Shown here one piece after another: positions 6,837 through 56,568 of a stretch of 64,000 nucleotides of DNA (positions within the stretch are counted from its first letter, which is position 1; every line of letters starts with the position of its first letter). The stretch covers positions 5,074 through 69,073 of the forward strand of contig JAWAZI010000003.1 of the NCBI GenBank assembly GCA_038817835.1, read 5' to 3'. The translations under genes were made by a program, and so were the position numbers. A model generated the notes under the pieces. It did not search any database and had not been told where the DNA came from. It worked only from the letters and a program-made list of their open reading frames with translations. The stretch comes from Candidatus Pacearchaeota archaeon. GTDB taxonomy: Archaea > Nanobdellota > Nanobdellia > Pacearchaeales > JAPDKA01.

Positions 6837-7325
6837 TTAAATTTTTTGTATTATTTCTAAATAAAAACCATAAATAATTAACTTAATAAAATTTTTTATT
6901 AAAGTTTTTTTGTCTATTAAAACTTTATAATTTTCTATATCTTTTTTTTCTATATTAATAGTTAATTTTACACCTCTTTTTACCATTATTCCTTCTTTAG
7001 GTTTTTCTTCTTCAATTATAAAAATATAGATTTTATCTTCCAAATTTTCTTTCATATATATACTAAAATTAATTTCTTTCTCTTTTTGATTTTTTTCTAT
7101 TTCAATATTTCTTATAATATTTATAGCATCACTTGATGGGTAAATTTTTAATTTAATTGATTCGTTTTCTATATTAATAATTTTAAAACTTAAATTTACT
7201 AATTTTCCTTGTTGATAATCTATATTAATTATTCCTGGAGAAACTCCAAAACTTTTTACTAAATTAATATTTAATAAAATTAAAATAAAAATTAAAAATA
7301 TTTTTTTCATTTTATTCAATAACAT
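6837..7325 (-). CDS. secreted beta-rich protein with signal peptide (162 aa)
   Basis: Signal peptide MKKIFLIFILILLNINLVKS then GVSPGIINIDYQQGKLVNLSFKIIN beta-strand pattern; start overlaps giant gene end by 14 nt. Confidence 0.5.
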   Translation of the reverse strand: MLLNKMKKIFLIFILILLNINLVKSFGVSPGIINIDYQQGKLVNLSFKIINIENESIKLKIYPSSDAINIIRNIEIEKNQKEKEINFSIYMKENLEDKIYIFIIEEEKPKEGIMVKRGVKLTINIEKKDIENYKVLIDKKTLIKNFIKLIIYGFYLEIIQKI

Positions 7326-25978: not shown

Positions 25979-28627
25979 ATGCCTTACAATTTTAAAGAAG
26001 TTGAGCAGGAATATAGCAAAATATTTGCAAAAATTTTTAAAGCAAAAATTAAATCAAAAAAACCAAAATTTTATTGTTTAGAAATGTTTCCTTATCCTAC
26101 AGGCAGACTTCATATGGGGCATGTGAGGAATTATACTATAGGAGATGCTGTTGCTAGAATGAAAAGAATGCAGGGATATAATGTTTTATATCCTATGGGT
26201 TATGATAGTTTTGGTTTACCAGCAGAGAATGCTGCAATAAAACATAAAATAAAACCAAATGAATGGACAGAGAAATGTATAAAAGATATGAAAGAGCAGC
26301 AAATTGCTATGGGTAATAGTTATGAATGGGATAGAGAAATTGCAACTCATAAACCAGAATATTATAAATGGAATCAATTTTTCTTTATCAAATTTTTTGA
26401 GAAAGGATTAATTTATAAAAAATTAGCTCCAGTTAATTGGTGTCCTAAATGTAATACAGTTTTAGCTAATGAACAAGTTCATAATGGAAGATGTTGGAGA
26501 CATGAAGATACAAAAGTAGAAATTAAATTACTTAATCAATGGTTTTTGAAAATTACAGACTATGCCGATGAATTACTTAAAGATTTAGAAAAATTAGATT
26601 GGCCAGAAAGAATTAAAGAGATGCAAAGAAATTGGATAGGAAAAAATGAAGGAACTTTAGTTAAATTTAAACTTGAAAAAAATGTTAATAATATAAATGA
26701 AATAGAAGTATTTACAACAAGAGTAGATACAATTTTTGGAGTAAGTTTTATTGCTATTGCTCCAGAACATCCTTTAACTTTAGAATTTGTAAAAGGCAAA
26801 GGAGAAAAAGAAAAAGAAGTAAAAGAATTCATTAGTAAAGTATTAATTCAAGAAAGATTTGAAAGATCGAGCAAGGAAAAAGAAGGAATATTTTTAGATA
26901 ATTATGCAATTCATCCTTTTACTAATGAAAAAATACCAATCTTTACTGCAAATTTTGTTTTACCAGATTATGGAACTGGAATAGTTATGGGAGTTCCTGC
27001 TCATGACGTTAGAGATTATGAATTTGCTAAAAAATATAAATTGCCAATAAAAGTTGTGATTAAAGCTGATAAAACAAATAATAGTGAAGTTTATGAAGGC
27101 TATGGAATTTTGATAAATTCAGGAGAATTTAATGGTTTAACTTCTCAACAAGCTATAGAAGAAATAACAAAAAAATTAAAAGAAAAAGGATTAGGAGATA
27201 AAAGTATTCAATTTAAAATTAGAGATTGGCTTATATCTAGACAACGTTATTGGGGTACACCAATACCAATAATTTATTGTGAAAATTGTGGAATTGTTAC
27301 AGAAAAAATAGAGAATTTACCAGTATTATTGCCAGATCCAAATAAAGTTAAATTTGGAGAAGGAAATCCTTTAGAAACTGTAAAAACCTGGCTGGAAACA
27401 AAATGTCCAAAATGTAATAAAAAAGCAAGAAGAGATAGTGATACTCTAGATACATTTTTTGATTCTAGTTGGTATTTCCTAAGATTTATTGATCCGAAAA
27501 ATGATAAGGAACCATTTAATAAAAATAAAATTAAATTATTTATGCCTGTTGATTTTTATATAGGTGGAGCAGAGCATGCTACTATGCATTTGATTTATGC
27601 TAGATTTTTTACAAAAGTTTTGAGAGATTTAAATTTTTTAGATTTTGATGAACCATTTTTAAAACTTGTTAATCAAGGAATTGTTACTTTGGGTGGAGAA
27701 GCTATGAGTAAAAGTAAGGGAAATATTGTTGATCCATTTGAGATAATTCCTAAATATGGTGCAGATGCCTTGAGATTTTTTATTTTGTTTAAGGCAATGC
27801 CTGATAAAGATCTAGAATGGAGTGATGAAGGAATAGAAAATATAAAAAAATTTCTTGATAAAATTATAGATATCTTTGAATATTGGAAAGAAAATAAAGA
27901 GAAATTAATTGAAAAATCTAAAAATAAACTTATAATAACAAGATTAAATTTATTAATAAAAGAATATACACAGCATCTTAATAATTTAGAATTTCCTTAT
28001 GCTTTAATTAAGCTTATGGATTTTGTAAAACTATTAAATAAAAATAAAGAAAAAATAAGTAATAATATTTTTAGATTAGTTTTTAAAAATTTAGCTTTGA
28101 TTATGAATCCTATAACTCCTTATTTAAGTGAATATTTATGGAAAGAGCTTGGATTTAGAGGCTATGCAAGTTTAGCTAAATGGCCAAATTTTAATGAGAA
28201 TAAAATTAAGGCACAATATGTTATAGAAGAAGATTACATTAAAAATTTGATATCAGATATCAATGAAATAAAAAAGATAATAAAAATAGAAAAAATAAAA
28301 AAGATAAATATAATTATTGCAGATAGATGGAAATATGAAATTTTTAAATTAATAAAAGAATGCAAAAATATTAATGAAGCGATTGAGAAAATAAAAAATA
28401 GTGAATATTCAGATAAACTTGATTATATTGTTAAATTTTTACCGAAATTTATTGGGAAGATAGACATTTTAATTGATCAAAAAGAAGAAATAAATATAAT
28501 TAAAGGAAATCTTGATGAGATTAAAAAAATATTTAAAGCAAAAATTAATTTGTTAAAGGAAAATAGAACAAAGGATGAAAAAGCTAAAAAAGCAATGCCA
28601 TTAAAGCCATCTATAATTTTGGAATAA
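25979..28627 (+). CDS. leuS: leucyl-tRNA synthetase
   Basis: HMGH (PTGRLHMGHVRNY) and KMSKS (MSKSKGN) class I motifs; 882 aa. Confidence 0.9.
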   Translation: MPYNFKEVEQEYSKIFAKIFKAKIKSKKPKFYCLEMFPYPTGRLHMGHVRNYTIGDAVARMKRMQGYNVLYPMGYDSFGLPAENAAIKHKIKPNEWTEKCIKDMKEQQIAMGNSYEWDREIATHKPEYYKWNQFFFIKFFEKGLIYKKLAPVNWCPKCNTVLANEQVHNGRCWRHEDTKVEIKLLNQWFLKITDYADELLKDLEKLDWPERIKEMQRNWIGKNEGTLVKFKLEKNVNNINEIEVFTTRVDTIFGVSFIAIAPEHPLTLEFVKGKGEKEKEVKEFISKVLIQERFERSSKEKEGIFLDNYAIHPFTNEKIPIFTANFVLPDYGTGIVMGVPAHDVRDYEFAKKYKLPIKVVIKADKTNNSEVYEGYGILINSGEFNGLTSQQAIEEITKKLKEKGLGDKSIQFKIRDWLISRQRYWGTPIPIIYCENCGIVTEKIENLPVLLPDPNKVKFGEGNPLETVKTWLETKCPKCNKKARRDSDTLDTFFDSSWYFLRFIDPKNDKEPFNKNKIKLFMPVDFYIGGAEHATMHLIYARFFTKVLRDLNFLDFDEPFLKLVNQGIVTLGGEAMSKSKGNIVDPFEIIPKYGADALRFFILFKAMPDKDLEWSDEGIENIKKFLDKIIDIFEYWKENKEKLIEKSKNKLIITRLNLLIKEYTQHLNNLEFPYALIKLMDFVKLLNKNKEKISNNIFRLVFKNLALIMNPITPYLSEYLWKELGFRGYASLAKWPNFNENKIKAQYVIEEDYIKNLISDINEIKKIIKIEKIKKINIIIADRWKYEIFKLIKECKNINEAIEKIKNSEYSDKLDYIVKFLPKFIGKIDILIDQKEEINIIKGNLDEIKKIFKAKINLLKENRTKDEKAKKAMPLKPSIILE

Positions 28628-39616: not shown

Positions 39617-40026
39617 AAGCTATAAGTGAACTATTAAGTTATGTTTTGCTTATTTTAATTTCTTTAAGTTTAGCTTTAACAGTTTATAGTTTTCTTCAAT
39701 ATAAAGCAAGAATCCCTGAAAAAGTAGAATGTCCTCAAGGAGTTAGCGTTTATGTTGTTAATTATACTTGTAATAATATAGTTGAATTTTATTTAAAAAA
39801 TAGTGGGTTTTGGAATATATCTGGAATAAATATTAAAGTTTATGGAGAGTTAAATAATCTTTGCAATTTTACAGAAACTTTTGAAAATTTGACCCCAGGT
39901 GAAGTAAAAAATTTTTCTATTGGTTGTAGTAATCCGAAGAAATTAGAAATTTTACCTTTTATAAACTCAACAAAAAATAAAAAAATTTATTGCAGTAATG
40001 CTATAATAAGATTGGATATTTGCTAA
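39613..40026 (+). CDS. archaeal type IV pilin-like protein (class III signal peptide, 137 aa)
   Basis: MKA|ISELLSYVLLILISLSLALTVY closely follows the archaeal pilin N-terminal pattern (K-G/A-I/L-S-P/E-x-I/L-A/S-x-x-L-L-I); ATGA overlap with upstream gene. Confidence 0.55.
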   Translation: MKAISELLSYVLLILISLSLALTVYSFLQYKARIPEKVECPQGVSVYVVNYTCNNIVEFYLKNSGFWNISGINIKVYGELNNLCNFTETFENLTPGEVKNFSIGCSNPKKLEILPFINSTKNKKIYCSNAIIRLDIC

Positions 40027-41240
40027 AATAATTTTTTTTGATTTTCTTCTATAATTGGTTTTCCATAAACACCATCATAACCAGGATCAACTTTTATTTT
40101 TCCTTCTCTATTTTTTATTATTAATTCTGCAATTTTATCTTTTACAATTTTTTTTAATTTACTATATTCTACTTTCATTAAAACATTAAATTCATTATCA
40201 AATTCTTTTATTAATTTATTATAAATTTCGCTAACTTTTTTATTATTTAGACTTTTTCCATAGAAATTTGCAATAAGTTCAGTTAGTGGCAATAATTTAA
40301 AAAAAGGTTTTGCATTATCTGGCTTAAAATTTTTTGGTTTATCTGATATTTCATTAACTCTATGCTCTACACCTATTGTTAATTTTTTTCCACATTTTGG
40401 GCATATATTATTTAGCTTAATTGCTTCTTCAGGAGAAAGTTTTATATTGCAATTTCTATGACCATCCCAATGATATTTTCCATATGCAGGATCAACCTCT
40501 ATTGTAGCTTTAATTTTATTTTTTCCATCTTTATTTTTTATTGCATCATAAATTGCGTTATAATCTAATTTATTTAGCTCAAATATTGTTGCTTCTCTAC
40601 CTAAACGCCAGGGCCAATAACTATGACTGTCAGAGAAACTTACTATATTTATTTTTCTTATTTCTTCTATTCTCCATAACATATCTGGAGAAGCACTTAA
40701 GCCTGATTCTACAGCATAAATAAATTTTGTTTTATCCTCAAAAGCTTCACTTAGTTTATTAAATCCTGATTTACTTCCAAATATTCCATACCAAGGAGTC
40801 ATACAATGTGCAGGAATAATAATAATCTTTTTATCTATTTCTAACATTAAATCTAAAAATTCTACACAACTTAATTGTAATGTTGGTCTCGCATCTTTAC
40901 TTAAATCTGTAAATTTACTTAATTTCTCATTTATTTGGTCTGCACATTCCAAATTTGGAGAAAATAATATTAAATGAACTTTTCTTTCTTTATCCTTTAA
41001 ATATGATAAATTTATCTCTGTTGTTAACAAAAAAGCTAAATTATTTCTATATAATATTCCATCTTCCTCAACTAATTTTTTCTTTATTTCTTTAAACCAT
41101 AAAGGATGAGTAAAATCACTTGTTGTTAATAAATTGAGTCCTTTTATTTTAGCATATTTTTCTATATTCTCCAAATTCATATCTTTACTTGTTGCTTTAC
41201 TATATTTACTATGAAAATGTAAATCAGCAATAATTTCCAT
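40023..41240 (-). CDS. PHP-domain nuclease with C-terminal zinc ribbon (endonuclease Q-like)
   Basis: N-terminal DLHFHSKYSKATS PHP metal-binding motif, further His/Asp motifs, CPKCGKK zinc ribbon; about 400 aa as in archaeal EndoQ. Confidence 0.5.
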   Translation of the reverse strand: MEIIADLHFHSKYSKATSKDMNLENIEKYAKIKGLNLLTTSDFTHPLWFKEIKKKLVEEDGILYRNNLAFLLTTEINLSYLKDKERKVHLILFSPNLECADQINEKLSKFTDLSKDARPTLQLSCVEFLDLMLEIDKKIIIIPAHCMTPWYGIFGSKSGFNKLSEAFEDKTKFIYAVESGLSASPDMLWRIEEIRKINIVSFSDSHSYWPWRLGREATIFELNKLDYNAIYDAIKNKDGKNKIKATIEVDPAYGKYHWDGHRNCNIKLSPEEAIKLNNICPKCGKKLTIGVEHRVNEISDKPKNFKPDNAKPFFKLLPLTELIANFYGKSLNNKKVSEIYNKLIKEFDNEFNVLMKVEYSKLKKIVKDKIAELIIKNREGKIKVDPGYDGVYGKPIIEENQKKLF

Positions 41241-41298: not shown

Positions 41299-41652
41299 AT
41301 GCTTGAGAAAAGCATAAGAGAATTTAAAAGTTATAATAATAAGCAAAATCTAGATGAAATAATTAATAATTGTAAGAGGGATGATATTAAAGAAAAATAT
41401 GCAGAAATAAAAAAACAATTTTTATTTTTTCCTGGAGAAAAAGAATTTTTGAAATTTTTAAAAATAACTCCAGAATTTTTTGCTGTAGAAGTTAATGGAA
41501 GTTCTGTAAAGAATTTTTATTATGTTACTAATGCTAAATTTTATAAAAAATCGTTTAAGATAATAAATGGATATGATATTATAAATGAAGCAAATATAAG
41601 TGGAAAATTTCCTATAGATAAGTTTTATTTCATAATAAATAAAAAAATTTAA
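41299..41652 (+). CDS. hypothetical protein (117 aa)
   Basis: No motif recognised. Confidence 0.35.
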   Translation: MLEKSIREFKSYNNKQNLDEIINNCKRDDIKEKYAEIKKQFLFFPGEKEFLKFLKITPEFFAVEVNGSSVKNFYYVTNAKFYKKSFKIINGYDIINEANISGKFPIDKFYFIINKKI

Positions 41653-41675
41653 AATAAATATTAATTTTTTTAATT

Positions 41676-41990
41676 ATGAAAGAAAAAAGCTTAAGGCTTA
41701 TAGGTTTTGATTCTATTGGTGAGGAAGAAATTGATATAGCTAAAAAACTAGTTTCTCATTATTTAAATAGAATAAACAATATTATAGATTATGACGAGTT
41801 AAAAGTTAATTTGAAATTACACGAAAGGAGAAATTTATTTATTCATGAAATTAGAGCAGAATTATTTACTGGGAGCAAAGTATTAGTAGCAACAAGCGAA
41901 AATAAAAATTTATTTTCAGCATTAGCTGATTGTTTTGAAGCTTTACTTGTTGAGATAGATAAAAATTTTAAAAAAAAGAAAAGAAGTTAA
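41676..41990 (+). CDS. ribosome hibernation promoting factor-like protein (HPF/YfiA/RaiA, Ribosomal_S30AE family)
   Basis: LIGFDSIGEEEIDIAKKLVSHYLNRINNII...LKVNLKLHERRNLFIHEIRAELFTGSKVLVATSENKNLFSALADCFEALLVEIDKNFKKKK aligns with E. coli HPF blocks ITGxxVEIT, FDRINQV, and GGEIHASAEGQDMYAAIDxLIDKLxRQLxKHK. Confidence 0.55.
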   Translation: MKEKSLRLIGFDSIGEEEIDIAKKLVSHYLNRINNIIDYDELKVNLKLHERRNLFIHEIRAELFTGSKVLVATSENKNLFSALADCFEALLVEIDKNFKKKKRS

Positions 41991-41991
41991 A

Positions 41992-42246
41992 ATGAAGAGA
42001 TTAAGAAAAAATATAAGGGAAAGAGGTAAAACAAGGCTTAGTGAATACTTTAAAGAATTGAAGGAGGGAGATAGAGTTGCAATTGTTCCTGCATTAGAGT
42101 TTCCGATGAATTTTCATAAACGTTATAGAGGTTTAGTCGGCAATATTATTGGCAAGAGAGGAAGATGCTATATTGTTGAAGTTAAAAAAAATAATAAGAA
42201 AAAATTAATAATAACATATCCGATACATCTTAAAAAAATAAAATGA
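41992..42246 (+). CDS. rpl21e: 50S ribosomal protein L21e
   Basis: 84 aa; L..YFKELKEGDRVAIV...YRGLVGNIIG pattern; conserved position before rpoF. Confidence 0.65.
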   Translation: MKRLRKNIRERGKTRLSEYFKELKEGDRVAIVPALEFPMNFHKRYRGLVGNIIGKRGRCYIVEVKKNNKKKLIITYPIHLKKIK

Positions 42247-42568: not shown

Positions 42569-43108
42569 ATGAAAATAAAAGAAGAATATGCAATAGTATT
42601 AGATTATTTGCCTTATGGTTATCCTTTAGAGAAAGAAAGAATTCCTATTATACAAGCTATTGGAATAGATCATTTTACTCTTCTTGAGTTAGTTCCTAAA
42701 AAAGATGCTAAAATAGAATTAAAGGAAAAACTATATATTGGAGAAGGGAAAAGAGAAAAAGTTTATTATATAAGAGGTAGATTAAATCCAGAAAAACTTA
42801 CAGAAACAGCAAAAATAAATTTAAAAGAATTTGTTCATGAAATATTAAATCAAAAACCTGAAATAATAGTTAATTTTTTCAATAATGCTCCTGCAATAAA
42901 TAAAAGGTTGCATAGTATAGAATTATTACCTGGATTTGGAAAGAAGCATACTCAAGATATAATTAAAGCTAGAGAAGAAAAACTTTTTGAAAGTATAGAA
43001 GATATTAAAAAAAGAGTAAAAAATTTACCAGATCCATTTAAATCTGTTGAAAAAAGAATAATTCAAGAATGTACTCAAAAAGAAAAATATAAACTTTTTG
43101 TACATTAA
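42569..43108 (+). CDS. DUF655-family RNA-binding protein (HhH-containing)
   Basis: N-terminal EEYAIVLDYLPYG and HhH LLPGFGKKHTQDII; conserved neighbour of rpoF in archaea. Confidence 0.65.
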   Translation: MKIKEEYAIVLDYLPYGYPLEKERIPIIQAIGIDHFTLLELVPKKDAKIELKEKLYIGEGKREKVYYIRGRLNPEKLTETAKINLKEFVHEILNQKPEIIVNFFNNAPAINKRLHSIELLPGFGKKHTQDIIKAREEKLFESIEDIKKRVKNLPDPFKSVEKRIIQECTQKEKYKLFVH

Positions 43109-43179: not shown

Positions 43180-43653
43180 ATGGCAAGAGGAAAGGAAAAG
43201 ACAAAAGAAATTGGCCAAGGATTTATTAGATTGCTAGATACAGATATACCTGTTGAAAAATCTGTATTAATTGGATTAACAAAAATTAAAGGAATAAGTT
43301 TTAGTTTAGCTCATGCTATATGTAATTATTTAGAAATTGATAAATTTAAAAAATTAAAAGATCTTAGTGAAGAAGAAATTAAAAAACTTCAGGATATAGA
43401 TAAAATAATAAATTATTTACCCCCTTGGCTTTATAATAGAAGAAGAGATAGAGAAACAAATAAGGATTTACATTTATTTGGTTCAAAACTAGATTTGACT
43501 AAAGAGTTCGATATTAGAAGGTTAAAGAAAATAAAATGTTATAGAGGAATAAGACATAGCTTGGGTTTACCTGTTAGAGGACAAAGGACAAAAAGCCACT
43601 TTAGAAAGGGAGCTACTGTTGGAGTACAAAAAGAAAAATCAAAGAAACGTTAA
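43180..43653 (+). CDS. rps13: 30S ribosomal protein S13
   Basis: IRLLDTDIPVEKSVLIGLTKIKGI...YRGIRHSLGLPVRGQRTKSHFRKG. Confidence 0.85.
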   Translation: MARGKEKTKEIGQGFIRLLDTDIPVEKSVLIGLTKIKGISFSLAHAICNYLEIDKFKKLKDLSEEEIKKLQDIDKIINYLPPWLYNRRRDRETNKDLHLFGSKLDLTKEFDIRRLKKIKCYRGIRHSLGLPVRGQRTKSHFRKGATVGVQKEKSKKR

Positions 43654-43654
43654 A

Positions 43655-44131
43655 ATGAGAAGATTCAAAAATACTTATCTTACACCAAAGAAAAGATGGG
43701 ATAAAGCAAGAATAGAAGAAGAAAAACAGTTGATGAAGGAATATGGTTTAAAAAATAAAAGAGAAATTTACAAAGTTTATGCAATTATTAAGAAAATAAG
43801 AAAAATTGCTAAAAAACTTGTTATAGCTAGTGAAGAAGAAAAAAGAGAATTTATAAAGAAATTATCAAGATATGGATTTGTTAATGAAAATGCAACTTTA
43901 GATGATGTTTTAGCATTAGATAAGAGGAAAATTTTAGATAGAAGATTACAAACAATTGTTTTTAAAAAAGGTTTGGCAAATACAATAAAACAAGCTAGAC
44001 AATTTATAGTTCATGGGCATATTAGTATTAATGGAAAAACTGTAAACGTGCCTAGCTATTTGGTTAAGCTTGATGAAGAAAATTTAATAAGCTTAAATGA
44101 TAAATTAAATAAAATCTTAAAACAAAAATGA
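43655..44131 (+). CDS. rps4: 30S ribosomal protein S4
   Basis: Start moved to ATG 43655; RRLQTIVFKKGLANTIKQARQFIVHGHISINGKTVNVPSYLV S4 domain. Confidence 0.85.
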   Translation: MRRFKNTYLTPKKRWDKARIEEEKQLMKEYGLKNKREIYKVYAIIKKIRKIAKKLVIASEEEKREFIKKLSRYGFVNENATLDDVLALDKRKILDRRLQTIVFKKGLANTIKQARQFIVHGHISINGKTVNVPSYLVKLDEENLISLNDKLNKILKQK

Positions 44132-44517
44132 GCGAGAAAGAAATACCGGGAATAGCATATATTTATAGCACAAACAATAATACAATAGTTCATATAACAG
44201 ATCTTAGCGGATATACTCTTGCTAGAGTTTCAGGAGGAATGGTAACAAAACATGATAGACTAAAAGCAAATCCTACAGTAGCTTTATTTGTTGCAAAATA
44301 TGCTGGAGAAAAAGCTAAAGAATTTGGTATAAATGCTTTATATGTTAGAGTTAGAGGTAGGGGAGGAAAAATAAATCCAATGCCTGGTCCTGGAGCAAGA
44401 AGTGCTATAAAATCTTTAGCAAAACTTGGATTTAAAATTTTGAGCGTGGTTGATGTAACCAGTTTTCCAAGAGGTGGACCTAAACCAAAAGGTGGAAGAA
44501 GGGGAAGAAGAGTTTAA
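44128..44517 (+). CDS. rps11: 30S ribosomal protein S11
   Basis: VHITDLSGYTL...NALYVRVRGRGGKINPMPGPGARSAIKSLAKLGFKI. Confidence 0.85.
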   Translation: MSEKEIPGIAYIYSTNNNTIVHITDLSGYTLARVSGGMVTKHDRLKANPTVALFVAKYAGEKAKEFGINALYVRVRGRGGKINPMPGPGARSAIKSLAKLGFKILSVVDVTSFPRGGPKPKGGRRGRRV

Positions 44518-44518
44518 A

Positions 44519-45283
44519 ATGGATTTAAAAATTATAGATAAAGGAGAAGATTGGATAAAAATAAAAGTTAGTGGTATAAATTATACATTAGCAAATGCAA
44601 TAAGAAGAAGTAGCTATGAAATTGATATTCCTGCTATAGATGAAATAGAAGTTCATAAAAATGATTCTGTTCTCTATGATGAAATATTAGCTAATAGGCT
44701 TGGTTTAATTCCTTTAATTCCTAGTAGAGATTTAAAAAGAAAAGAAGAATGTAGTTGTAAAGGAAAAGGTTGTAAAAGTTGTACTTTAAAATTAAAATTA
44801 GAAGCAAAAGGAAAAGGCATAGTTTATTCTGATAAACTTGTTGGAGAAGCAGAAGCTTTATTTAAAGATATACCTATTGTTTGGCTTGAGGAAGATCAAG
44901 AGATAAAAATAATTGCTAATGTAACTTTAGGAAAAGCAATAGATCATGCAAAGTATCAAGCAGGATTGGTAATTTTTAATCCTTGTTATTATCTTTCAAA
45001 TTTTGATGAAAAATTTATTGAAAATAATGAAAAAATAAAAAATATTATAGAAAAATTTAATATACCATTAAAAAAAGGAGTAGAAATTGATGAAAAACAA
45101 TTTGAAATTTTGGATTGGATAAGAGAAAATTATAAAGAATCAAAAATAAAGCTAGAAATTAGTGATAAAGATTTTATTTTTTATATAGAAACTTATAGCT
45201 ATTTAAAACCACTAGAAATTTTTATTAAATCTTTGGAAGCATTAGAAGAAAATTTAAATAAATTAAACAAAATTTTGAAATAA
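44519..45283 (+). CDS. rpoD: DNA-directed RNA polymerase subunit D (Rpb3 homolog)
   Basis: Start moved to ATG 44519; dimerisation domain plus 4-Cys cluster CSCKGKGCKSC; follows S11 as in archaea. Confidence 0.75.
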   Translation: MDLKIIDKGEDWIKIKVSGINYTLANAIRRSSYEIDIPAIDEIEVHKNDSVLYDEILANRLGLIPLIPSRDLKRKEECSCKGKGCKSCTLKLKLEAKGKGIVYSDKLVGEAEALFKDIPIVWLEEDQEIKIIANVTLGKAIDHAKYQAGLVIFNPCYYLSNFDEKFIENNEKIKNIIEKFNIPLKKGVEIDEKQFEILDWIRENYKESKIKLEISDKDFIFYIETYSYLKPLEIFIKSLEALEENLNKLNKILK

Positions 45284-45366: not shown

Positions 45367-45840
45367 ATGGGAGAGCTAGTTACAACAGTGATAAAGGCTA
45401 GTTCTTTTCAAGAAAGAGATAAAGCATTGGAAATATTAAAAAAAATTAAAGAATTTAATGATAGAGATATATTAACTTGTCTTTATGTTTTTGATAATAT
45501 TGGGAATGGGGAATATGAAGGATTTTCTGCTTATGCTAATGATAAACTAGCAGGATTTATACTTTTTACTAAAAATTCTCTAGCTTTAGATGTTTTTGAG
45601 CTTCTTTGGATTGTTGTTGATCCAGATTGGCAAGGAAATGGGATTGGTAGTTTATTAATGGAAAAATTTTTAGAAGAAATGAAAATAAGAAATGCAAGAA
45701 TTATTATTTTACATACTTCAGAACATTATTTAAAAGCTAAATCCTTATATAAAAAATATAATTTTAATTGTGAAGCTGTAATAAAAGATTTTTATGATAT
45801 TGGAGATTCAAAAGAAATTTGGGTTTTGAGATTAAAGTAA
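45367..45840 (+). CDS. GNAT-family N-acetyltransferase
   Basis: VVDPDWQGNGIGSLLMEKFLEE acetyl-CoA binding motif (Q/RxxGxG/A). Confidence 0.8.
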   Translation: MGELVTTVIKASSFQERDKALEILKKIKEFNDRDILTCLYVFDNIGNGEYEGFSAYANDKLAGFILFTKNSLALDVFELLWIVVDPDWQGNGIGSLLMEKFLEEMKIRNARIIILHTSEHYLKAKSLYKKYNFNCEAVIKDFYDIGDSKEIWVLRLK

Positions 45841-48153: not shown

Positions 48154-48984
48154 GTGAAAAAAATGAAAAATAAAAAAAATTTTTTTAATTTTTTATTAAT
48201 CCCCTTTAAATTTTTTTTTAAAAATATTTATGTAGCTTTACCATCTTTATTTTTTTTGATATCATCTAGCATTATTTCACTTATATTCTCTTTTTTATTT
48301 TTAGCTTTAGGTTTTTCATTAATTAATCAAGATCTAAATCTTGAAAATTTTAAATTCAGTTCTTTTTTTAGTTTATTACTTTTAATTTTCCTTTATTTTT
48401 TATTTTTGATTATTTTATCATCTTTGTTTTTCTCTAGTACTTTAGTTTTTTCTAGAAATATTGTTAATGGATTAAGAGAAAAAAATTATTTAAAAAACTT
48501 ATTTGCTTATACTAAATATTGGTGGAAAATTTTAGTTTTATCATTAATTTTTATTTTTTTGATTTTTATAATTTCTATTCCTTTTAGTTTAATTATTATA
48601 TTTCTTGCAATAAAATTTTTCTCTACTTTTAATACTATAAATTTAATTTTTTTAATTTTAATTTTAATTTTTAGTTTTATTGTTTTAGTAATTTTTTCAT
48701 TATTTTTTTATCCATCTATTTATTGCTTAGTTTATTATGATTCAGGCTTATTGGATAGCATTAAAATATCTTTTATTAATGTATATAAAAATTTTTTAGA
48801 ATTCTTTAACCTAAATTTAATTTTATTTTTAATTTATTCATTGCTATCAATAGTTTCAGTTTTTTCAAATATTATATTGAGTAGTATTGTTAGTGTTGTT
48901 TTAATCTTATTTTTTATCCCATTTTCTTCATTGACAATAATGTATTTTATAAAAAATAAATTTAAAAGAAAAATAAAAAAATGA
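48154..48984 (+). CDS. polytopic membrane protein (276 aa)
   Basis: About 7 hydrophobic helices; 4-nt overlap with downstream secreted-protein gene. Confidence 0.5.
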   Translation: MKKMKNKKNFFNFLLIPFKFFFKNIYVALPSLFFLISSSIISLIFSFLFLALGFSLINQDLNLENFKFSSFFSLLLLIFLYFLFLIILSSLFFSSTLVFSRNIVNGLREKNYLKNLFAYTKYWWKILVLSLIFIFLIFIISIPFSLIIIFLAIKFFSTFNTINLIFLILILIFSFIVLVIFSLFFYPSIYCLVYYDSGLLDSIKISFINVYKNFLEFFNLNLILFLIYSLLSIVSVFSNIILSSIVSVVLILFFIPFSSLTIMYFIKNKFKRKIKK

Positions 48985-50642
48985 AAAATATTGTTATATT
49001 TATTTTGATATTATTATTTGTTTTAGTTTCTATTCCATTATCTTATTCAGGAACATCTCATGGAGTAGTTGGGAAAGTACTCGATTCTTGTGATGGAACT
49101 AGAGCAAATGGAGCAAAAGTAACTTTTTATATTTTAACTAGACCAGATGATAAATTATATGATGTTGTTGGTCCAAGAGGCAATAGTGGAAAAGATAATT
49201 ATTATTTTGTTGATATTGGAAATTTTATTTATCCATGGCAGTCGGGAGAAACATTAATTATTGAGATTTTTAAAGATGAAGATCATGCTGTAAATATAAG
49301 TATTAATTTAACAGATGCTGGTTTTGATGTAGCTCCGACAGTCAAATTGCCAGGCTATTGCCCAAATCATCCACCAATAATAGTTTCATATTATCCACAA
49401 AATCTTTCTTTGATAACTAATAAACCTATAAATTTTTGGGTTTATGCTATAGATGAAGATGGTGATAATCTAGTTTTGAAATGGTATGTAAATGGTGAGG
49501 AAGTTAAAAGTGAGGAAAATAATGGTAATATAAATTCTAGTTTTTATTTTTCTTATAATATTGGAGAATATACAGTTAAGGCAGTAGTTAGTGATTATGA
49601 ATATAATGCATCTGTTGAATGGCAAGTCAAAATAATTAATAATCCACCAGAAATAATTTATTATTTACCAAATAAAACTTATATAACAACAAATACAACA
49701 ATAGAATTTTTTGTTATAGCTAGAGATATAGATGAAGATGATCTAGTTTTGAAATGGTATGTAAATAATGAAGAAAAAAAACAAAAATTTGGAAAAGGAA
49801 ATATTAATGATACTTTTATATTTACATCTTCTCCAGGATATTATATTATAAAAGCAGAGGTTAGTGATGGAATAGGAAGCGATAGAGTTATATGGAGTGT
49901 TAATTTTAGTGGGGAATGTATAGATTATTGGGAATGTGGAAATTGGAGTGAGTGTGATGAAATGGGATTTAGATATAGAGAATGTTGGAAAATAAATCCA
50001 GAATGTCAAAGTAATATAAATCAACCTCCAATGAAAGTTTTTGATCCAGAATGTTTAAATTTAACATGTACTCCAAATTTTGTTTGTGGAGATTGGAGTG
50101 AATGTATAGCAAAATATAATCTTGAAGAAGTTATAGCTCAAGAGCCACCATATTATGTTAAAGGTAAAATGTATCAGGAATGTAAAGATATAACTAATTG
50201 TACAAATTTATTAAGGATTTTTGAAAAAAATTGTAGTTTATATTTGCCTATAGAAATTAGTAGAACAATACAATGTGAAGTAGCATTTATATTTATTAAA
50301 GATCTAAGAACAAATCAAACTTTAGTAAAAATAAAAAAACCAATAGAATTTACAGGAGTTGATATTTATATTGCTCCAAGGGAAGGAAAGCAATATTGTT
50401 GGTATTGCTTTAACGGAAAAAAAGATTATGATGAAGTTGATGTTGATTGTGGTGGACCAAATTGTCCTCCATGTACTTTAAAACAAATTCCACCAAAGAA
50501 GCATAATTTATTTAAATACTTTATCTTATTATTATTTTTCTTAGTTTTAATATTATATATTATCTCAAAGATTAAAGAAATAAGAGAAAATGTTAATCCA
50601 ATTGAGATATTTAGAAAGATAATAAAAATGGAAGAAAAATAA
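48981..50642 (+). CDS. secreted Cys-rich surface protein with N-terminal prealbumin-like domain, two DxDGD Ig-like repeats, CG[ND]WSEC motifs and C-terminal TM anchor (553 aa)
   Basis: Signal peptide; repeats PPIIVSYYPQN...YAIDEDGDNLVLKWYVNGEE and PPEIIYYLPNK...IARDIDEDDLVLKWYVNNEE; CIDYWECGNWSEC and CTPNFVCGDWSEC; terminal hydrophobic helix. Confidence 0.6.
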   Translation: MKNIVIFILILLFVLVSIPLSYSGTSHGVVGKVLDSCDGTRANGAKVTFYILTRPDDKLYDVVGPRGNSGKDNYYFVDIGNFIYPWQSGETLIIEIFKDEDHAVNISINLTDAGFDVAPTVKLPGYCPNHPPIIVSYYPQNLSLITNKPINFWVYAIDEDGDNLVLKWYVNGEEVKSEENNGNINSSFYFSYNIGEYTVKAVVSDYEYNASVEWQVKIINNPPEIIYYLPNKTYITTNTTIEFFVIARDIDEDDLVLKWYVNNEEKKQKFGKGNINDTFIFTSSPGYYIIKAEVSDGIGSDRVIWSVNFSGECIDYWECGNWSECDEMGFRYRECWKINPECQSNINQPPMKVFDPECLNLTCTPNFVCGDWSECIAKYNLEEVIAQEPPYYVKGKMYQECKDITNCTNLLRIFEKNCSLYLPIEISRTIQCEVAFIFIKDLRTNQTLVKIKKPIEFTGVDIYIAPREGKQYCWYCFNGKKDYDEVDVDCGGPNCPPCTLKQIPPKKHNLFKYFILLLFFLVLILYIISKIKEIRENVNPIEIFRKIIKMEEK

Positions 50643-51207: not shown

Positions 51208-54200
51208 ATGAAAAAAGGGGTGAAATTTTTAATATTTTTCATTTTGATAGCATTAATTTGGATAATTTTTTTATTATTATTTAAGTCTAGAATTACAGGA
51301 TATAGTATAAATGCTAAAAATTTTTATTTAGTTGGAGAAAATTTAGAAGGATTTTATAATTTAAAATTAAGGCAAGGAGAATTATGGCCATTAGATGCTA
51401 AAGTTATAGTAAGAGCTAATAATATAACTAAAGAATTAAGCTTAAGAGATTGGTTAGAACAAAGCGGAATTGATTATGAAATAATCTATGGAAATTTTTA
51501 TGTTTATGATAAAAATATTTATGGTTATGGTGAAGGTTTTGGAAAAATTGGGAAATATATTGAAAAACCAAATATAAAATTTGAGATAAAAATATATTCT
51601 AAAGAAAAAGAAGAAAAGCCAGTAGAAGAAGAACATCCGGTGGAAATAAAACCAGAGATACCTGTTGAACAGCCAGCTCCAATCGAGCAACCTCAAGAAA
51701 CAATTGAACAACCACAAGAAGAAATACCATCTCAAACAGAGCAACCAACCGAGGTTGAACAACCAGTAGAACAACCACAACTACCTCCAGAAGAAGCAGA
51801 AACTCCAACAGTTCCTGAACAACCAAGTGAACAACCTGAAAAACCAGAAGCAGAAAAAGTTCAGGAGGGAATTTTTAGTAGATTAATAAAATATGGTCCA
51901 TTAAATTTTTTCTATTTCTTTAGAAATTTAGTTGGTTTTGCTATAACTAATGAAATTGAAGGGGAAAAAATAATTCAAGCATATGTTAATATTGATAATC
52001 CATATATTTTAGAGATAAATGAAAATCAATATGCTGAGTTTGTTAGTGGAAGTGTAAAAATAAATGATATTCCTGCTGATGATAACTTCATTAAATTTGA
52101 GAAAAAAGATAATAAAATAATTGTAACTACAGATTATAAAATTGAGAGGGAAGGATTTGGGAAAGAATTTTTAGGAGAAGAATTTTACATTAACCTAAGT
52201 TTAAATATTTTTAATTTAACTTTTGATAAGGAAGGTGTTTATGATTTAGATGTTGAGATAATTTATAATAATATTATTCTTGATAAAGCATCAGCTAAAA
52301 TATTTGTTGAAAAATCAAATCAAACTTATTATATTATTAAATTAATTGATGAAAAGGGAAGAGTAATAAAAGAAATTAATATAAGCAAGAACGAAACTAG
52401 AGAAGGGATTAAATTAAAAATAAAAGAAGAAAAAATTATTTTAGAAAAACCCGAAGAAATTAAGGTTTTAAGCTTAATTCCATTTGTAAAGGCTCAGGTA
52501 ACTCAATTACCTAAAGCTCAATTACCTATATGTGGAAATAATGAATGTGAAAGTGGTGAAGATACTAGCAATTGCCCTAGTGATTGTCCTTTTACTATTT
52601 ATAATTATAGAGGTGGAGATATTTCAGTTCAATTTATTTCTCCATCACAAGAATTAATAAATAAAGGAATATTAACAGAGATAGTTTATTCTACCCCTGC
52701 AGACTTTGATTATGCTTTGATAAAGCTTAACAAAATAGATCCATCTTTAGAAATATCTAAAATTTTAAAATGTGAGAATTGGAATGCTATAACTGCTTCT
52801 TGTGTTGGCAATTTTATCCCTGTTGATATTCCTTTTATTGATTATGGAGATTATATTGTTATAAACATAACAAATTTTTCTGCTTATGCTGGTGGTGCTG
52901 GCTATAATGCATCATTAGTTATTTGGGATAGTAGTGATGCTAGAGCTATAGGCATAAACGAAACAATTTTCTTTTATGCAAATTATTCAACTTATCCTGA
53001 AGGAATACCAATAAATGATAGTAATGGCATTTGTTTAGCATTTTTTAGTTTTGAGAATAGACCAGGATTTTCTGCTGAGATGCAATTTAATTATTCATCT
53101 ATGCTATGGGAAACAAGTTTTTTAACTACAGAAGATATGGTTGGTATTAATAATTTTACAGTTAATTGTTCCTCTAGCAATTATGATAATTTAACAGCAA
53201 GTGATGAATTTATAATTCAAAATATTAGTGTTAATATTATAACTAATTGTACAGAAATAAATCAATCTGGAATTTATAGATTAAATGGTAATTTAACTGC
53301 TACATCATCTTCAAGTTTTGATGGAGCATGTATAAAAATTGCTTCTGATAATGTAATATTTGATTGCAATAATTATGCTATTATTAATGATCTAACAGAT
53401 CCTGTTTCTTATATTATAAAAATATCAAAAAGAACATTAGAAGGAGTAGGAACTGGCTATAATGTTAGTATAAAAAATTGTGAAATTTATAATGCATATT
53501 ATAAAGGAATAGAAATTGATACTTTTAATAATCTAAATTTAGAAAATATAAAAATTCTTAATCAAGAAGAAGGTTGTTGTGGTATAGATATATATGATTC
53601 AAATAATATAAGTATAAATAATTATTATTATGAAGGTAGTGGAGCTTTTGGCTTAACAATTAGTAATTCTTCATATTTAATAGCAAGAAATATTAATATT
53701 ATTAATTATCTTTATGGTTATGAAATAATTGGAGAATGTATTAGTGCTAATATATTAAATAATTCTATTTTTGATGAAGGATTTTTGAATTGTAGTATTA
53801 ATTTAAGGTTGAATGGAGGATCTAATATTAATATTTCTAACTTTTATATTACTCATGGTGATATTAGGGCTGGGGGAGAAAATATTATTATAGAAAATAA
53901 TACATTTGAAGATATATACTCTTTTGAAGCAATTGATTTTTGGGGTAGCGAGAATATTTTCATAAGAAACAATATTTTCAAAAATGTTAAAGGGGAATAT
54001 ATTAAAGTAGATTCCTCCAATAATTTTGAAATTTATAATAATACATTTTATTATAATTCTTCTGAGGGTTTGTTTAATATAATATATTTATCTGCTTCAA
54101 ATAATGGAATCATTAAAGATAATAAATTTATTTATGATGACTTTACAGATTCTTCACAGCCTTTAAATAATTCATCATTTATAGAGATAGGTAATGATAA

Positions 54201-56568
54201 TAGTGAAATAATTAAATTTGAAAATAATTATTTTAAATGGGAAGAAAATGAATTTTATTTTGATGCATTGATTATAAATACTACATCTATTTATGCATAT
54301 AAAGGTTCACCACCATCTTCACCAAATAATTTAATACCATTAAATAAATCATTGATTATATATCAATATTCCCATAATAATAGAATAGATTTAAATATTT
54401 CTTTTGATCCTATTTATAACAATATTAGTTATTATAAAATTGATTTATTAAATGATTCTGGCTGGCTTCAACAATACACAGAAATAATAAATAATAAAGC
54501 ATATACTTATTTTGAAACTCCAGAATTGAATGAAACATATGTTTTTCTTAGTTTATTTGGAGAAGCTCCAGCAGAATGCACTTGTAATTCTTGTGAAGAT
54601 TGCATGAATAAACTTAATAATCCTTCTTGTACAGAAGTAAAACTAGTTAACGATATAATAAATATAGATAGAAATCCATGTATAAATATAAGTTTTTCTA
54701 ATAAAATTTTTGATTGTCAAAATTATAGTATAATAGGAAATGAAACTACTTTAATAGATTATGTTGCAATTTTAATAAATCCAGCAAGCAATGTAACAAT
54801 AAAAAATTGTAATATAGAAAGATTTTATAATGCTATTTTACTAGGAATAGGGTCTCGCTCACCAAAGAATTACAATTTTATTAATATAATTAATAATACT
54901 TTATTGAATAATTCAAGAGCTATAACTTACTCTGAAGAAATTGAAATTTATAATAGCCAAATAGAAAATAATACTTTAATTGATAATATTTTTGGTATTA
55001 AATTCAAAGGTTCTAATAATATAATAAGAAATAATAAAATTAGAGGTAGATATAGGAGTAATGCTACTCACATGGAAACCATTGGAATTATGATTTATCA
55101 ACCAAGTAGAAGTACTTTAATTGATAATAATATAGTATGTAAACATGTATATGATATAAAAGCTGATACCTATGCTAGTGGTATACAAAACTATTGTGAT
55201 GTAGCTATTAACTTTAGTGATTCAAATGCTAGTGGTTGTAAGAAAAAAACAGATATTAATTTTGATATAAAATCTTATTTATTAAAATCTGATAAAATAC
55301 CAATTATAAAATTTGATGTTATTCTTTATTCTAATATTAGTGCAAAAGCAAGATTATATAGTAAATATAATTGGAAAGAAGAATGGAAACCAAATTTTGG
55401 AGCATCATCTTGTATTCGTTTATTGGGAGGATCTATACAAGAATCTAGTGAAGAATTAACCTTACAAGAATCAACTTCTAAAGAATCAATTATTACATCT
55501 AAACTTATACAAGAATCTGTTGGAGAAGAATCAATTTCACTACCACCTCCACAGGAAAAGCCTTCACTTCCACCACCAGAGCCAATTCCACCATCTAAGC
55601 CACCATCTAAACCTCCAATAATATTTACTCTTTGTTCAAGTAGCGGAGAATTAGTATCAGTATCTAGCGGGGATGAGATATTTGCTGAAGGTTATGGAAT
55701 TGTTTCTCCAACAGAGCCATGCATGGAAGGAAGAGAAAGCTATAATATAACTTTCCAAGACGCATTTCCATATAAGGATTGTAGTAATAACACAATAATG
55801 GAATTTGAATATTATAAAATTGAGTTTGAGAACTTTTGTAATAAGAAAGAAAGTGATGTTTATTTAAGAAAAACAAATGAATTAATAAAATCTCCATCAA
55901 AACAAACAGGAATTAACTTTGTTTCATTCACAACAGATATAAGATATGGTGGCATAGCTGTTGCATCTGATGGAAAAATGGCAATTGTTACACCTGAGGA
56001 TATAGATTGTACAATTCAATTACCTATTGAATTAAAAGCCGTATCGCCATGGATAACTCTTTCAAGTTCATCAGAGTTACTAACTTCTTGTATAAGTAGA
56101 AAACTTCAAGAAGAAAACTCATCAGCAAGATTGATATATGCTAGTTATTGGGATGAAGAAAGACAAATGTATGTTGGCCATCCTGCTAGCTTATTTGCAA
56201 ATGCATATATTAAAGATTTCCCAATAAAATTAGGAAAATCTTATTTTGTAGATGTTAATAAAAATTTAACATTCACACAATTTGGAAAACTTCCACCAGA
56301 ATCAATTTGGCATGAAATTAAAGCTGTTGGAGAAAAAATTAATATTATAACTTTAACTCCTCATCAACAAAATATAACAACAGTTAGACAACTTTGTAAT
56401 TTATCGTTTGTAAATCCATATGGATATGTTGAATATTGGGATCCAATAAATCAAAATTTTTTACAAGTTGAATCTCAGCGATGTATGTTTTCAACAAATA
56501 CAGCTTTAGATTTATCTATCCCATATAGAGTTAGTGTAATTAAAAACTATTCTGGGCTTATACCATAA
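51208..56568 (+). CDS. giant glycosylated cell-surface protein (1786 aa), paralog of 7312-11934: signal anchor, Pro/Gln/Glu-rich linker, parallel beta-helix repeats, C-terminal Pro-rich segment
   Basis: N-terminal TM; shared blocks with the 1540-aa protein (FGKEFLGEEFYINLSLNIFNLTFDKEGVYDLDVEIIYNNIIL vs FGEEFLGDIHIFNFPLENFNIKLNNTGVYEFHVKFYYKDIVF; CENWNAITASCVGNF...INITNFSAYAGG vs CKNWSIEEFKCYGEW...FNITNFSGISGG; beta-helix entry NCTEINQSGIYRLNGNLT...CIKIASDNVIFDCNNYAI). Confidence 0.75.
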   Translation: MKKGVKFLIFFILIALIWIIFLLLFKSRITGYSINAKNFYLVGENLEGFYNLKLRQGELWPLDAKVIVRANNITKELSLRDWLEQSGIDYEIIYGNFYVYDKNIYGYGEGFGKIGKYIEKPNIKFEIKIYSKEKEEKPVEEEHPVEIKPEIPVEQPAPIEQPQETIEQPQEEIPSQTEQPTEVEQPVEQPQLPPEEAETPTVPEQPSEQPEKPEAEKVQEGIFSRLIKYGPLNFFYFFRNLVGFAITNEIEGEKIIQAYVNIDNPYILEINENQYAEFVSGSVKINDIPADDNFIKFEKKDNKIIVTTDYKIEREGFGKEFLGEEFYINLSLNIFNLTFDKEGVYDLDVEIIYNNIILDKASAKIFVEKSNQTYYIIKLIDEKGRVIKEINISKNETREGIKLKIKEEKIILEKPEEIKVLSLIPFVKAQVTQLPKAQLPICGNNECESGEDTSNCPSDCPFTIYNYRGGDISVQFISPSQELINKGILTEIVYSTPADFDYALIKLNKIDPSLEISKILKCENWNAITASCVGNFIPVDIPFIDYGDYIVINITNFSAYAGGAGYNASLVIWDSSDARAIGINETIFFYANYSTYPEGIPINDSNGICLAFFSFENRPGFSAEMQFNYSSMLWETSFLTTEDMVGINNFTVNCSSSNYDNLTASDEFIIQNISVNIITNCTEINQSGIYRLNGNLTATSSSSFDGACIKIASDNVIFDCNNYAIINDLTDPVSYIIKISKRTLEGVGTGYNVSIKNCEIYNAYYKGIEIDTFNNLNLENIKILNQEEGCCGIDIYDSNNISINNYYYEGSGAFGLTISNSSYLIARNINIINYLYGYEIIGECISANILNNSIFDEGFLNCSINLRLNGGSNINISNFYITHGDIRAGGENIIIENNTFEDIYSFEAIDFWGSENIFIRNNIFKNVKGEYIKVDSSNNFEIYNNTFYYNSSEGLFNIIYLSASNNGIIKDNKFIYDDFTDSSQPLNNSSFIEIGNDNSEIIKFENNYFKWEENEFYFDALIINTTSIYAYKGSPPSSPNNLIPLNKSLIIYQYSHNNRIDLNISFDPIYNNISYYKIDLLNDSGWLQQYTEIINNKAYTYFETPELNETYVFLSLFGEAPAECTCNSCEDCMNKLNNPSCTEVKLVNDIINIDRNPCINISFSNKIFDCQNYSIIGNETTLIDYVAILINPASNVTIKNCNIERFYNAILLGIGSRSPKNYNFINIINNTLLNNSRAITYSEEIEIYNSQIENNTLIDNIFGIKFKGSNNIIRNNKIRGRYRSNATHMETIGIMIYQPSRSTLIDNNIVCKHVYDIKADTYASGIQNYCDVAINFSDSNASGCKKKTDINFDIKSYLLKSDKIPIIKFDVILYSNISAKARLYSKYNWKEEWKPNFGASSCIRLLGGSIQESSEELTLQESTSKESIITSKLIQESVGEESISLPPPQEKPSLPPPEPIPPSKPPSKPPIIFTLCSSSGELVSVSSGDEIFAEGYGIVSPTEPCMEGRESYNITFQDAFPYKDCSNNTIMEFEYYKIEFENFCNKKESDVYLRKTNELIKSPSKQTGINFVSFTTDIRYGGIAVASDGKMAIVTPEDIDCTIQLPIELKAVSPWITLSSSSELLTSCISRKLQEENSSARLIYASYWDEERQMYVGHPASLFANAYIKDFPIKLGKSYFVDVNKNLTFTQFGKLPPESIWHEIKAVGEKINIITLTPHQQNITTVRQLCNLSFVNPYGYVEYWDPINQNFLQVESQRCMFSTNTALDLSIPYRVSVIKNYSGLIP
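51613..51853 (+). repeat. low-complexity Pro/Gln/Glu-rich (EQP-type) linker-coding region with locally elevated GC
   Basis: Imperfect repeats of gaacaacc(a/t)ca encoding EQPQ/VEQP units. Confidence 0.6.

Follow-up and report, generated by a model that had tools for sequence, protein, structure and literature searches.

The stretch of DNA analysed here, which is 64,000 nt long and is referred to below as the window, contains a gene for a 104-aa protein, hereafter the HPF-like protein, with an ATG start codon at position 41676 and a TAA stop codon at 41988-41990. It is followed on the same strand by genes for ribosomal proteins, RNA polymerase subunits and a DUF655 protein (Table 1), and the start of rpoF overlaps the stop of rpl21e by 4 nt. 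A preliminary description of the locus had given the position and the length of the open reading frame exactly, and the order that it proposed for the next three genes, rpl21e, rpoF (Rpb4) and the DUF655 gene, was confirmed by their Pfam matches. The spacing to rpl21e had been given as 2 nt and is in fact 1 nt, with rpl21e starting at 41992. The start of the S4 gene is probably situated about 12 codons 3' of the TTG codon listed in Table 1, since the corresponding gene at a near-identical locus, L007, was called at 158 aa.

Table 1. Features of the HPF-like gene and the co-directional genes that follow it in the window.
Feature	Position	Strand	Evidence and remarks
A+T-rich spacer, 23 nt, 5' of the HPF-like gene	41653..41675	+	Sequence; inferred only
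Stand-alone HPF/RaiA-like gene, 104 aa	41676..41990	+	ORF; PF02482, 23.2 bits; AF2; Foldseek; family profile
rpl21e, ribosomal protein L21e, 84 aa	41992..42246	+	PF01157, E=4.5e-18; 1 nt past the stop of the HPF-like gene
rpoF, RNA polymerase subunit F / Rpb4-like, 107 aa	42243..42566	+	PF03874, E=3.7e-10
DUF655 protein, 179 aa, helix-hairpin-helix region	42569..43108	+	PF04919, E=6.5e-55
Ribosomal protein S13 gene	43180..43653	+	99% identical to the L007 ORF; called gene in L007 matches PF00416
Ribosomal protein S4 gene	43619..44131	+	L007 equivalent, PF01479
Ribosomal protein S11 gene	44128..44517	+	L007 equivalent, PF00411
RNA polymerase subunit D gene, start uncertain; last of the co-directional block	44474..45283	+	L007: PF01193/PF01000

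A TATA-like sequence, TTTAAAATA, is located approximately 21-29 nt upstream of the ATG codon of the HPF-like gene. It would fit a promoter that gives rise to a leaderless transcript, a resemblance that is not significant in DNA so rich in A+T. In 7 of 8 loci, the HPF-like gene has no Shine-Dalgarno motif 5' of its ATG codon, and such a motif precedes rpl21e in just 3 of 8 loci.

Further upstream, a gene for a 405-aa PHP-like protein (40023..41240) is encoded divergently on the minus strand. The PHP match is weak; the near-identical copy in L007 matches PF27218 (MJ0043_C), and in L010 and L011, too, a copy with 56-57% identity adjoins the HPF-like gene. A 117-aa ORF on the plus strand (41299..41652) was considered as a partner of the HPF-like gene and rejected, as it has no Pfam or NCBIfam match and is kept only in the near-identical L007.

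Relationship to the HPF/RaiA proteins

The HPF-like protein matched PF02482 (Ribosomal_S30AE) over profile positions 8-87 of 88 with a score of 23.2 bits (E=1.2e-4), so that the family search proposed in the preliminary description gave a borderline match, 0.5 bit under the Pfam gathering score of 23.7 bits. The score against the yfiA equivalog model TIGR00741 was 15.6 bits (E=0.017), far below the cut-off of 40.9 bits, and an annotation of the protein as a bacterial HPF/YfiA equivalog would be wrong. A pairwise BLASTP comparison with E. coli HPF was not significant (E=2.5), and searches of the PDB sequences with the single protein or with a profile of four sequences returned no HPF, only ClpA noise (E=0.04-0.2).

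A 114-sequence family profile was required to reach HPF among the PDB sequences. When 1.84 billion cluster representatives were searched exhaustively with HMMER, 110 of them were matched at E<=1e-3, and these were aligned together with the window protein and three close relatives (n=114). PF02482 was matched by 62 of the 114 family members at E<=0.01 and by 19 at E<=8e-5, and no second Pfam family was matched by more than one of them. The profile found the E. coli HPF structure chains with E-values of 2e-5 to 3.4e-5 (hmmsearch), V. cholerae HPF with E=1.7e-4 and RaiA/YfiA with E of about 2e-3, and it also matched the N-terminal domains of long HPF proteins. Likewise, hhalign aligned the family profile to E. 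coli HPF with a probability of 89% (E=2.3e-6), in an alignment that spans beta2 through alpha2 alone (window residues 38-100) and contains one gap, which corresponds to a beta2-beta3 hairpin that exceeds its E. coli counterpart by 4 residues. In the profile alignments, the beta4/alpha2 region of the window protein pairs with GGEIHASAEGQDMYAAIDGLIDKL in E. coli HPF, and the HPF signature of this region, E75..N78-L-F-x-A82 (E..D-M-Y-A-A in E. coli), is kept across the family.

A similar picture emerged from the predicted structure. The AlphaFold2 (AF2) model, which was built on an alignment of four sequences (pLDDT 87.8, pTM 0.80), consists of beta1 (residues 5-9), alpha1 (16-36), beta2 (41-51), beta3 (54-64), beta4 (69-76) and alpha2 (79-98), followed after alpha2 by a basic C-terminal tail of 6 residues, KKKKRS. 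A Foldseek search of the PDB with this model placed HPF, YfiA, pY and RaiA chains at all ranks from 1 to 35 (TMq 0.48-0.76). The top-listed chain was spinach pY (6eri_BV), and the best structural match was V. cholerae HPF (4hei_A), to which the predicted model aligned with TM-scores of 0.76/0.85 and an rmsd of 1.9 A. Sequence identity in the structural alignments with the HPF-family chains was 11-22%. The predicted model thus carries the HPF fold. The preliminary description had named the combination of no PF02482 match and another fold as the outcome that would speak against its assignment; the search gave a match, although one formally 0.5 bit short of the Pfam threshold, and the AF2 and Foldseek results gave the HPF fold.

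The same description had based the homology on an alignment by eye with E. coli HPF, the two blocks of which fared differently. The pairing in the second block (GSKVLVATSENKNLFSALAD... with NGGEIHASAEGQDMYAAID...) is essentially right, whereas the first block, in which LNRINNI was set against FDRINQV, is shifted by about 6 residues. The segment LNRINNI falls within helix alpha1, and it is D38-YDEL at the start of beta2 in the window protein that pairs with R33-INQV in E. coli HPF; the "RIN" common to both is a coincidence. This alignment by eye could not have shown the similarity to HPF; the pairwise BLASTP comparison was insignificant and in another register. The proposed homology to HPF/RaiA is nonetheless upheld by the profile evidence and the predicted fold, and we conclude with high confidence that the HPF-like protein belongs to the HPF/RaiA (PF02482) superfamily as a divergent member and is a homolog of the HPF-fold proteins.

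We also considered the possibility that the protein is a generic RNA-binding protein of the dsRBD-like type that acts away from the ribosome, and that it resembles HPF through convergence or too distantly for the similarity to be informative about function. The sub-threshold scores of the single sequence in the PF02482, TIGR00741 and BLASTP comparisons would fit such a protein, as would the presence of the dsRBD proteins MLE, Loquacious and DRB7.2 in the Foldseek list. However, these begin at rank 36, below an unbroken series of HPF-family chains with higher TM-scores, and the sequence profile independently finds HPF/RaiA in both the hmmsearch and the hhalign comparisons. Furthermore, PF02482 alone recurs in the family, and the gene is located in a ribosomal context. 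We therefore regard a generic RNA-binding protein as very improbable.

The relatives that were recovered form a family of basic, single-domain proteins of about 100 aa that is essentially restricted to the DPANN archaea among the relatives found here. All 110 cluster representatives are 76-167 aa long, most of them were matched over almost their whole length, and several family members carry the JGI name "ribosome-associated translation inhibitor RaiA." The closest protein, with 98% identity, was found in a MAG labeled "Candidatus Pacearchaeota archaeon." With two exceptions, the named relatives are assigned to DPANN lineages, that is to Pacearchaeota, Woesearchaeota and "Nanoarchaeota." One of the two exceptions, "Euryarchaeota archaeon SM23-78," has the gene among archaeal ribosomal genes. 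The other, a "Bacteroidota bacterium," has it on a 4.4-kb contig together with the genes for L31e and S19e, which identify this as a misbinned archaeal contig. The median pI of the family is 9.0, as compared to 8.7 for the window protein and 6.5 for E. coli HPF. Residues are conserved at I6, L8, G10, F11, E18, K32, L46, K47, H49, E58, N78, A82, K89 and E93, of which G10-F11, K47, H49, E58 and N78 are specific to the family; K89 is replaced by A in the window protein.

The resemblance to bacterial proteins raises the question of whether a bacterial hpf gene has been misplaced by contamination or misassembly, or was very recently transferred into this one genome. The family profile does fit bacterial short HPF (E=2e-5) better than the sole CBS-length "RaiA" chain in the PDB, 9i5v_14, to which it matched weakly (E=0.49), and one of the relatives bears a bacterial name. 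Yet the window is archaeal throughout, with an archaeal RNase P RNA, 8 tRNAs and the genes for L21e, RpoF and the DUF655 protein, and the HPF-like gene is separated by a single nucleotide from rpl21e. Moreover, relatives with 24-98% identity are located in the same archaeal operon across many DPANN genomes, and the "Bacteroidota" contig is itself archaeal. Contamination as the source of a bacterial gene was accordingly rejected on the archaeal RNase P in the window and the archaeal genes beside the "Bacteroidota" relative, and we hold a misplaced or very recently acquired bacterial gene to be extremely improbable. An ancient transfer of HPF into the archaea is possible. For the archaeal HPF proteins in general, an early horizontal gene transfer was favored in one study (Madru et al., 2026, Nat Commun, PMC13324472) and descent from LUCA in the AHA preprint (PMC12934967).

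The preliminary description had also stated that HPF is not normally present in archaea, which were said to use unrelated factors. This view is outdated. Madru et al. (2026, PMC13324472) described an HPF/RaiA domain in HibA, which they found in 47% of archaeal genomes, and reported that 8% of archaea, "mostly DPANN and Nitrososphaerales," have stand-alone HPF/RaiA-like proteins. In the AHA preprint, 926 HPF-only archaeal proteins were listed from 814 species in 12 phyla (PMC12934967). The archaeal stand-alone class, referred to as "canonical HPF / HPF-only" in the preprint, consists like the protein studied here of a single HPF-fold domain without CBS domains; the DPANN archaea are named among its main hosts, and its function was proposed by analogy with bacteria (PMC13324472; PMC12934967 for the alternative name). 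Encoded on an archaeal contig and with a lone HPF-fold domain, the HPF-like protein belongs to this class, which was already catalogued in 2026, and nothing in our data contradicts its membership. Nothing is overturned by our results, since HPF-type domains in archaea, including DPANN, had already been published.

Comparisons with the better-known members of the superfamily help to delimit the family. Bacterial short HPF (YhbH) and RaiA/YfiA share the fold, with TM-scores up to 0.76/0.85, but the HPF-like protein has conserved residues specific to its own family, and as compared to E. coli HPF it is more basic and has a hairpin with 4 more residues. The genomic setting differs too. Bacterial hpf genes are found in the rpoN operon, for example, whereas the HPF-like gene is part of an archaeal ribosomal protein operon and the target of its product would be the archaeal ribosome. 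The fold also corresponds to that of the N-terminal HPF domain of the long HPF proteins in Firmicutes, Thermus and Mycobacterium, and of plastid PSRP1/pY. The dimerization domain of long HPF, PF16321, was not found in the HPF-like protein in a Pfam scan at E<=10, and a self-driven dimerization of the 100S type is not expected of a protein that has no such C-terminal domain.

HibA and AHA, by contrast, are proteins of about 390-400 aa with an N-terminal CBS tetrad and a C-terminal HPF domain, whereas the HPF-like protein has 104 aa and no CBS domain. None of the 110 proteins from the exhaustive search exceeds 167 aa, i.e., the set contains no fusions of HibA/AHA length, and no CBS domain was found in the 17 window ORFs that were scanned against Pfam (the window has 75 ORFs of at least 90 aa). 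Mutual exclusion with HibA and CBS-module (CM-1/2/4/5) factors within a genome is a further mark of the stand-alone class (Madru et al., 2026). The absence of the CBS module from the HPF-like protein precludes the contacts with the large subunit (PTC, uL5, L1 stalk) and the sensing of adenylates that are seen in HibA. We had considered the PDB chain 9i5v_14 (401 aa, matched at 316-400) as P. abyssi HibA, an identification that was dropped because the PDB codes given in the HibA study are 9SR9-9SRF and 9T7H. Two "archaeal-specific insertions" were described in HibA, one of which is located between beta14 and beta15 and contacts uS12 (PMC13324472). The additional residues between beta2 and beta3 of the HPF-like protein appear to coincide with this insertion, as judged by its published description.

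Gene order at related loci

In 10 loci, the HPF-like gene is located directly 5' of the genes rpl21e-rpoF-DUF655-S13-S4-S11 on the same strand, with the gene for RpoD coming after S11 wherever the contig extends that far. In nine loci, the distance from the HPF-like gene to rpl21e ranges from -4 to +11 nt, whereas in L020 it is 28 nt. Identity to the window protein is 98% in L007, 39% in L008, 38% in L009 and 24% in L020 for the HPF-like proteins linked to rpl21e. Because the genes situated 5' of the HPF-like gene vary among the loci, it is the HPF-like gene that heads the conserved block. We also used the DUF655 protein as bait, by which 8 close DPANN loci in reference genomes were obtained independently of the HPF-like protein, and linkage to an HPF-like gene was observed in 5 of the 7 that were informative (L010, L011, L012, L013 and L015). 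The co-expression with ribosomal components that had been suggested in the preliminary description is thus supported by a conserved and tightly packed synteny.

The operon is present without an HPF-like gene in L014 and L016, which are from related genomes, and the gene is thus not an obligatory member of the operon. At these two loci, the slot just 5' of rpl21e is occupied by an ORF for a zinc-ribbon protein of 50-56 aa (MTKKC.YCN...C.SCG; L014 648..800, L016 2193..2363), with a divergent ORF beyond it that, on inspection by eye, resembles RpoN/Rpb10.

More distant members of the family have other neighbors. The HPF-like gene is located between the gene for L15e and a convergent L31e-S19e pair in L001/L002, L021 and L022, after L44e-S27e-eIF2alpha-Nop10 in L003/L004, 5' of SRP54 in L005/L006 and L019, and near EF-1beta and aS21 in L018. 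An association of the family with translation genes is thus recurrent, in loci that are phylogenetically related and for which the counts are raw. A 57-aa unannotated gene between L31e and S19e, for which no Pfam match is recorded, also recurs in the Woesearchaeota-type loci (L001, L002, L021 and one more), and by its position it could be L39e. Furthermore, a GNAT acetyltransferase gene is situated 3' of RpoD where the operon of the window ends (45367..45840, plus strand), and another GNAT is encoded directly 3' of the HPF-like gene in L022 (3825..4154), the locus of a distant relative. This recurrence may reflect a link to ribosomal-protein acetyltransferases.

The main texts of the two studies of archaeal HPF proteins make no mention of operon linkage or gene context (PMC13324472; PMC12934967). 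The conserved position of the HPF-like gene as the first gene before the rpl21e block, which is apparently undiscussed in both main texts, appears to be new here. Our analysis also adds a delineated DPANN family of proteins of about 100 aa, with its conserved residues and basic pI.

Putative function at the ribosome

We consider it probable that the HPF-like protein acts as a silencer of the ribosome at the decoding site. We infer this function from the bacterial HPF and RaiA proteins and from HibA and AHA, whose HPF domains bind archaeal ribosomes. The HPF domain of AHA occupies the bacterial HPF site on the small subunit of Haloferax (PMC12934967), and that of HibA is located in the mRNA/tRNA channel, where it contacts h44, h28, h24, h23 and uS12 (PMC13324472). 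By analogy, the HPF-like protein would sit between the head and the body of the small subunit, bound in the mRNA/tRNA channel, and would there cover the decoding center with its A and P sites as well as part of the mRNA path. With tRNA and mRNA blocked in this manner, idle ribosomes would be kept silent and be shielded from degradation. Given the lack of both a CBS module and the additional domain of long HPF, the protein probably resembles RaiA and short HPF in its mode of action, that is, as a plug of the small subunit that neither forms a bridge to the large one nor dimerizes ribosomes by itself.

Bacterial hibernation factors are typically induced by stress, and the place of the HPF-like gene as the first gene in an operon for ribosomal proteins and RNA polymerase, which is unlike this pattern, counts against the proposed function. 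The operon position suggests that the HPF-like protein is made along with the ribosomal proteins and not under stress alone, and like PSRP1 it may be produced alongside them. Such a coupling of its synthesis to that of the ribosome leaves room for a constitutive role in the "parking" of ribosomes or as an assembly checkpoint. One alternative is therefore that the protein has the same fold and binding site but serves as a constitutive partner that is stoichiometric with the ribosomes, rather than as a hibernation factor induced by stress. It could then be a default "parking" subunit, similar to PSRP1/pY of plastids, initially described as a ribosomal protein, or a factor for late small-subunit assembly or quality control that withholds new subunits from translation.

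The first-gene position in the rpl21e block, with tight junctions that are retained down to 24% identity, agrees with such a constitutive role, and the neighbors in the other lineages (L15e/L31e/S19e, L44e-S27e-eIF2alpha-Nop10 and SRP54) are all translation genes linked to growth. However, gene order is silent on the level and the stability of the protein and on whether its binding is regulated; there may be internal promoters, or control may be post-transcriptional, as for bacterial hpf and raiA, and the operons in L014 and L016 do without the gene. On these grounds we find a constitutive partner somewhat unlikely and favor the hypothesis of a ribosome silencer at the decoding site.

An even more specific hypothesis is that, in DPANN of the Pacearchaeota/Woesearchaeota type, the HPF-like gene as the first cistron of a core operon provides each new ribosome with a plug, so that ribosomes are "off by default" or pass a maturation checkpoint. 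We regard this scheme as unlikely. If true, the ribosomes of these archaea, which depend on a host and have tiny genomes, would be freed only upon the arrival of resources from the host, or the small subunit would be subject to a checkpoint during its maturation, and the regulatory logic of the HPF family would then be unlike the stress-induced one in bacteria and in archaea with HibA-type factors.

Our results confirm that a lineage that ranks among the most reduced of the archaea makes use of a bacterial-type HPF fold. The DPANN family, with its conserved residues and a good predicted model, provides defined material for asking whether an HPF domain alone, without the CBS module, silences the archaeal ribosome. 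Furthermore, the place of the gene at the head of the operon hints that the supply of the hibernation factor may follow the production of ribosomes in episymbiotic archaea, the ribosomes of which are presumably idle for long periods.

Other genes in the window

Several genes elsewhere in the window are also worth a comment. The leucyl-tRNA synthetase (882 aa, 25979..28627, plus strand) matches PF13603 (tRNA-synt_1_2, the LeuRS editing domain) with 217.7 bits. The PF13603 domain arrangement is typical of bacterial-type LeuRS, and this DPANN enzyme may thus be of the bacterial type. Two very large ORFs encode a DUF2341 protein (1540 aa, 7312..11934, minus strand) and a right-handed beta-helix protein (1786 aa, 51208..56568, plus strand), and another gene encodes a protein with a PKD domain (553 aa, 48981..50642, plus strand). 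All three proteins probably function at the cell surface or in adhesion, which would be of relevance to an episymbiotic lifestyle. Finally, a 587-aa protein (11985..13748, plus strand) contains PIN, type II/IV secretion-system ATPase (T2SSE) and KH domains, an unusual fusion of nuclease, ATPase and RNA-binding modules.
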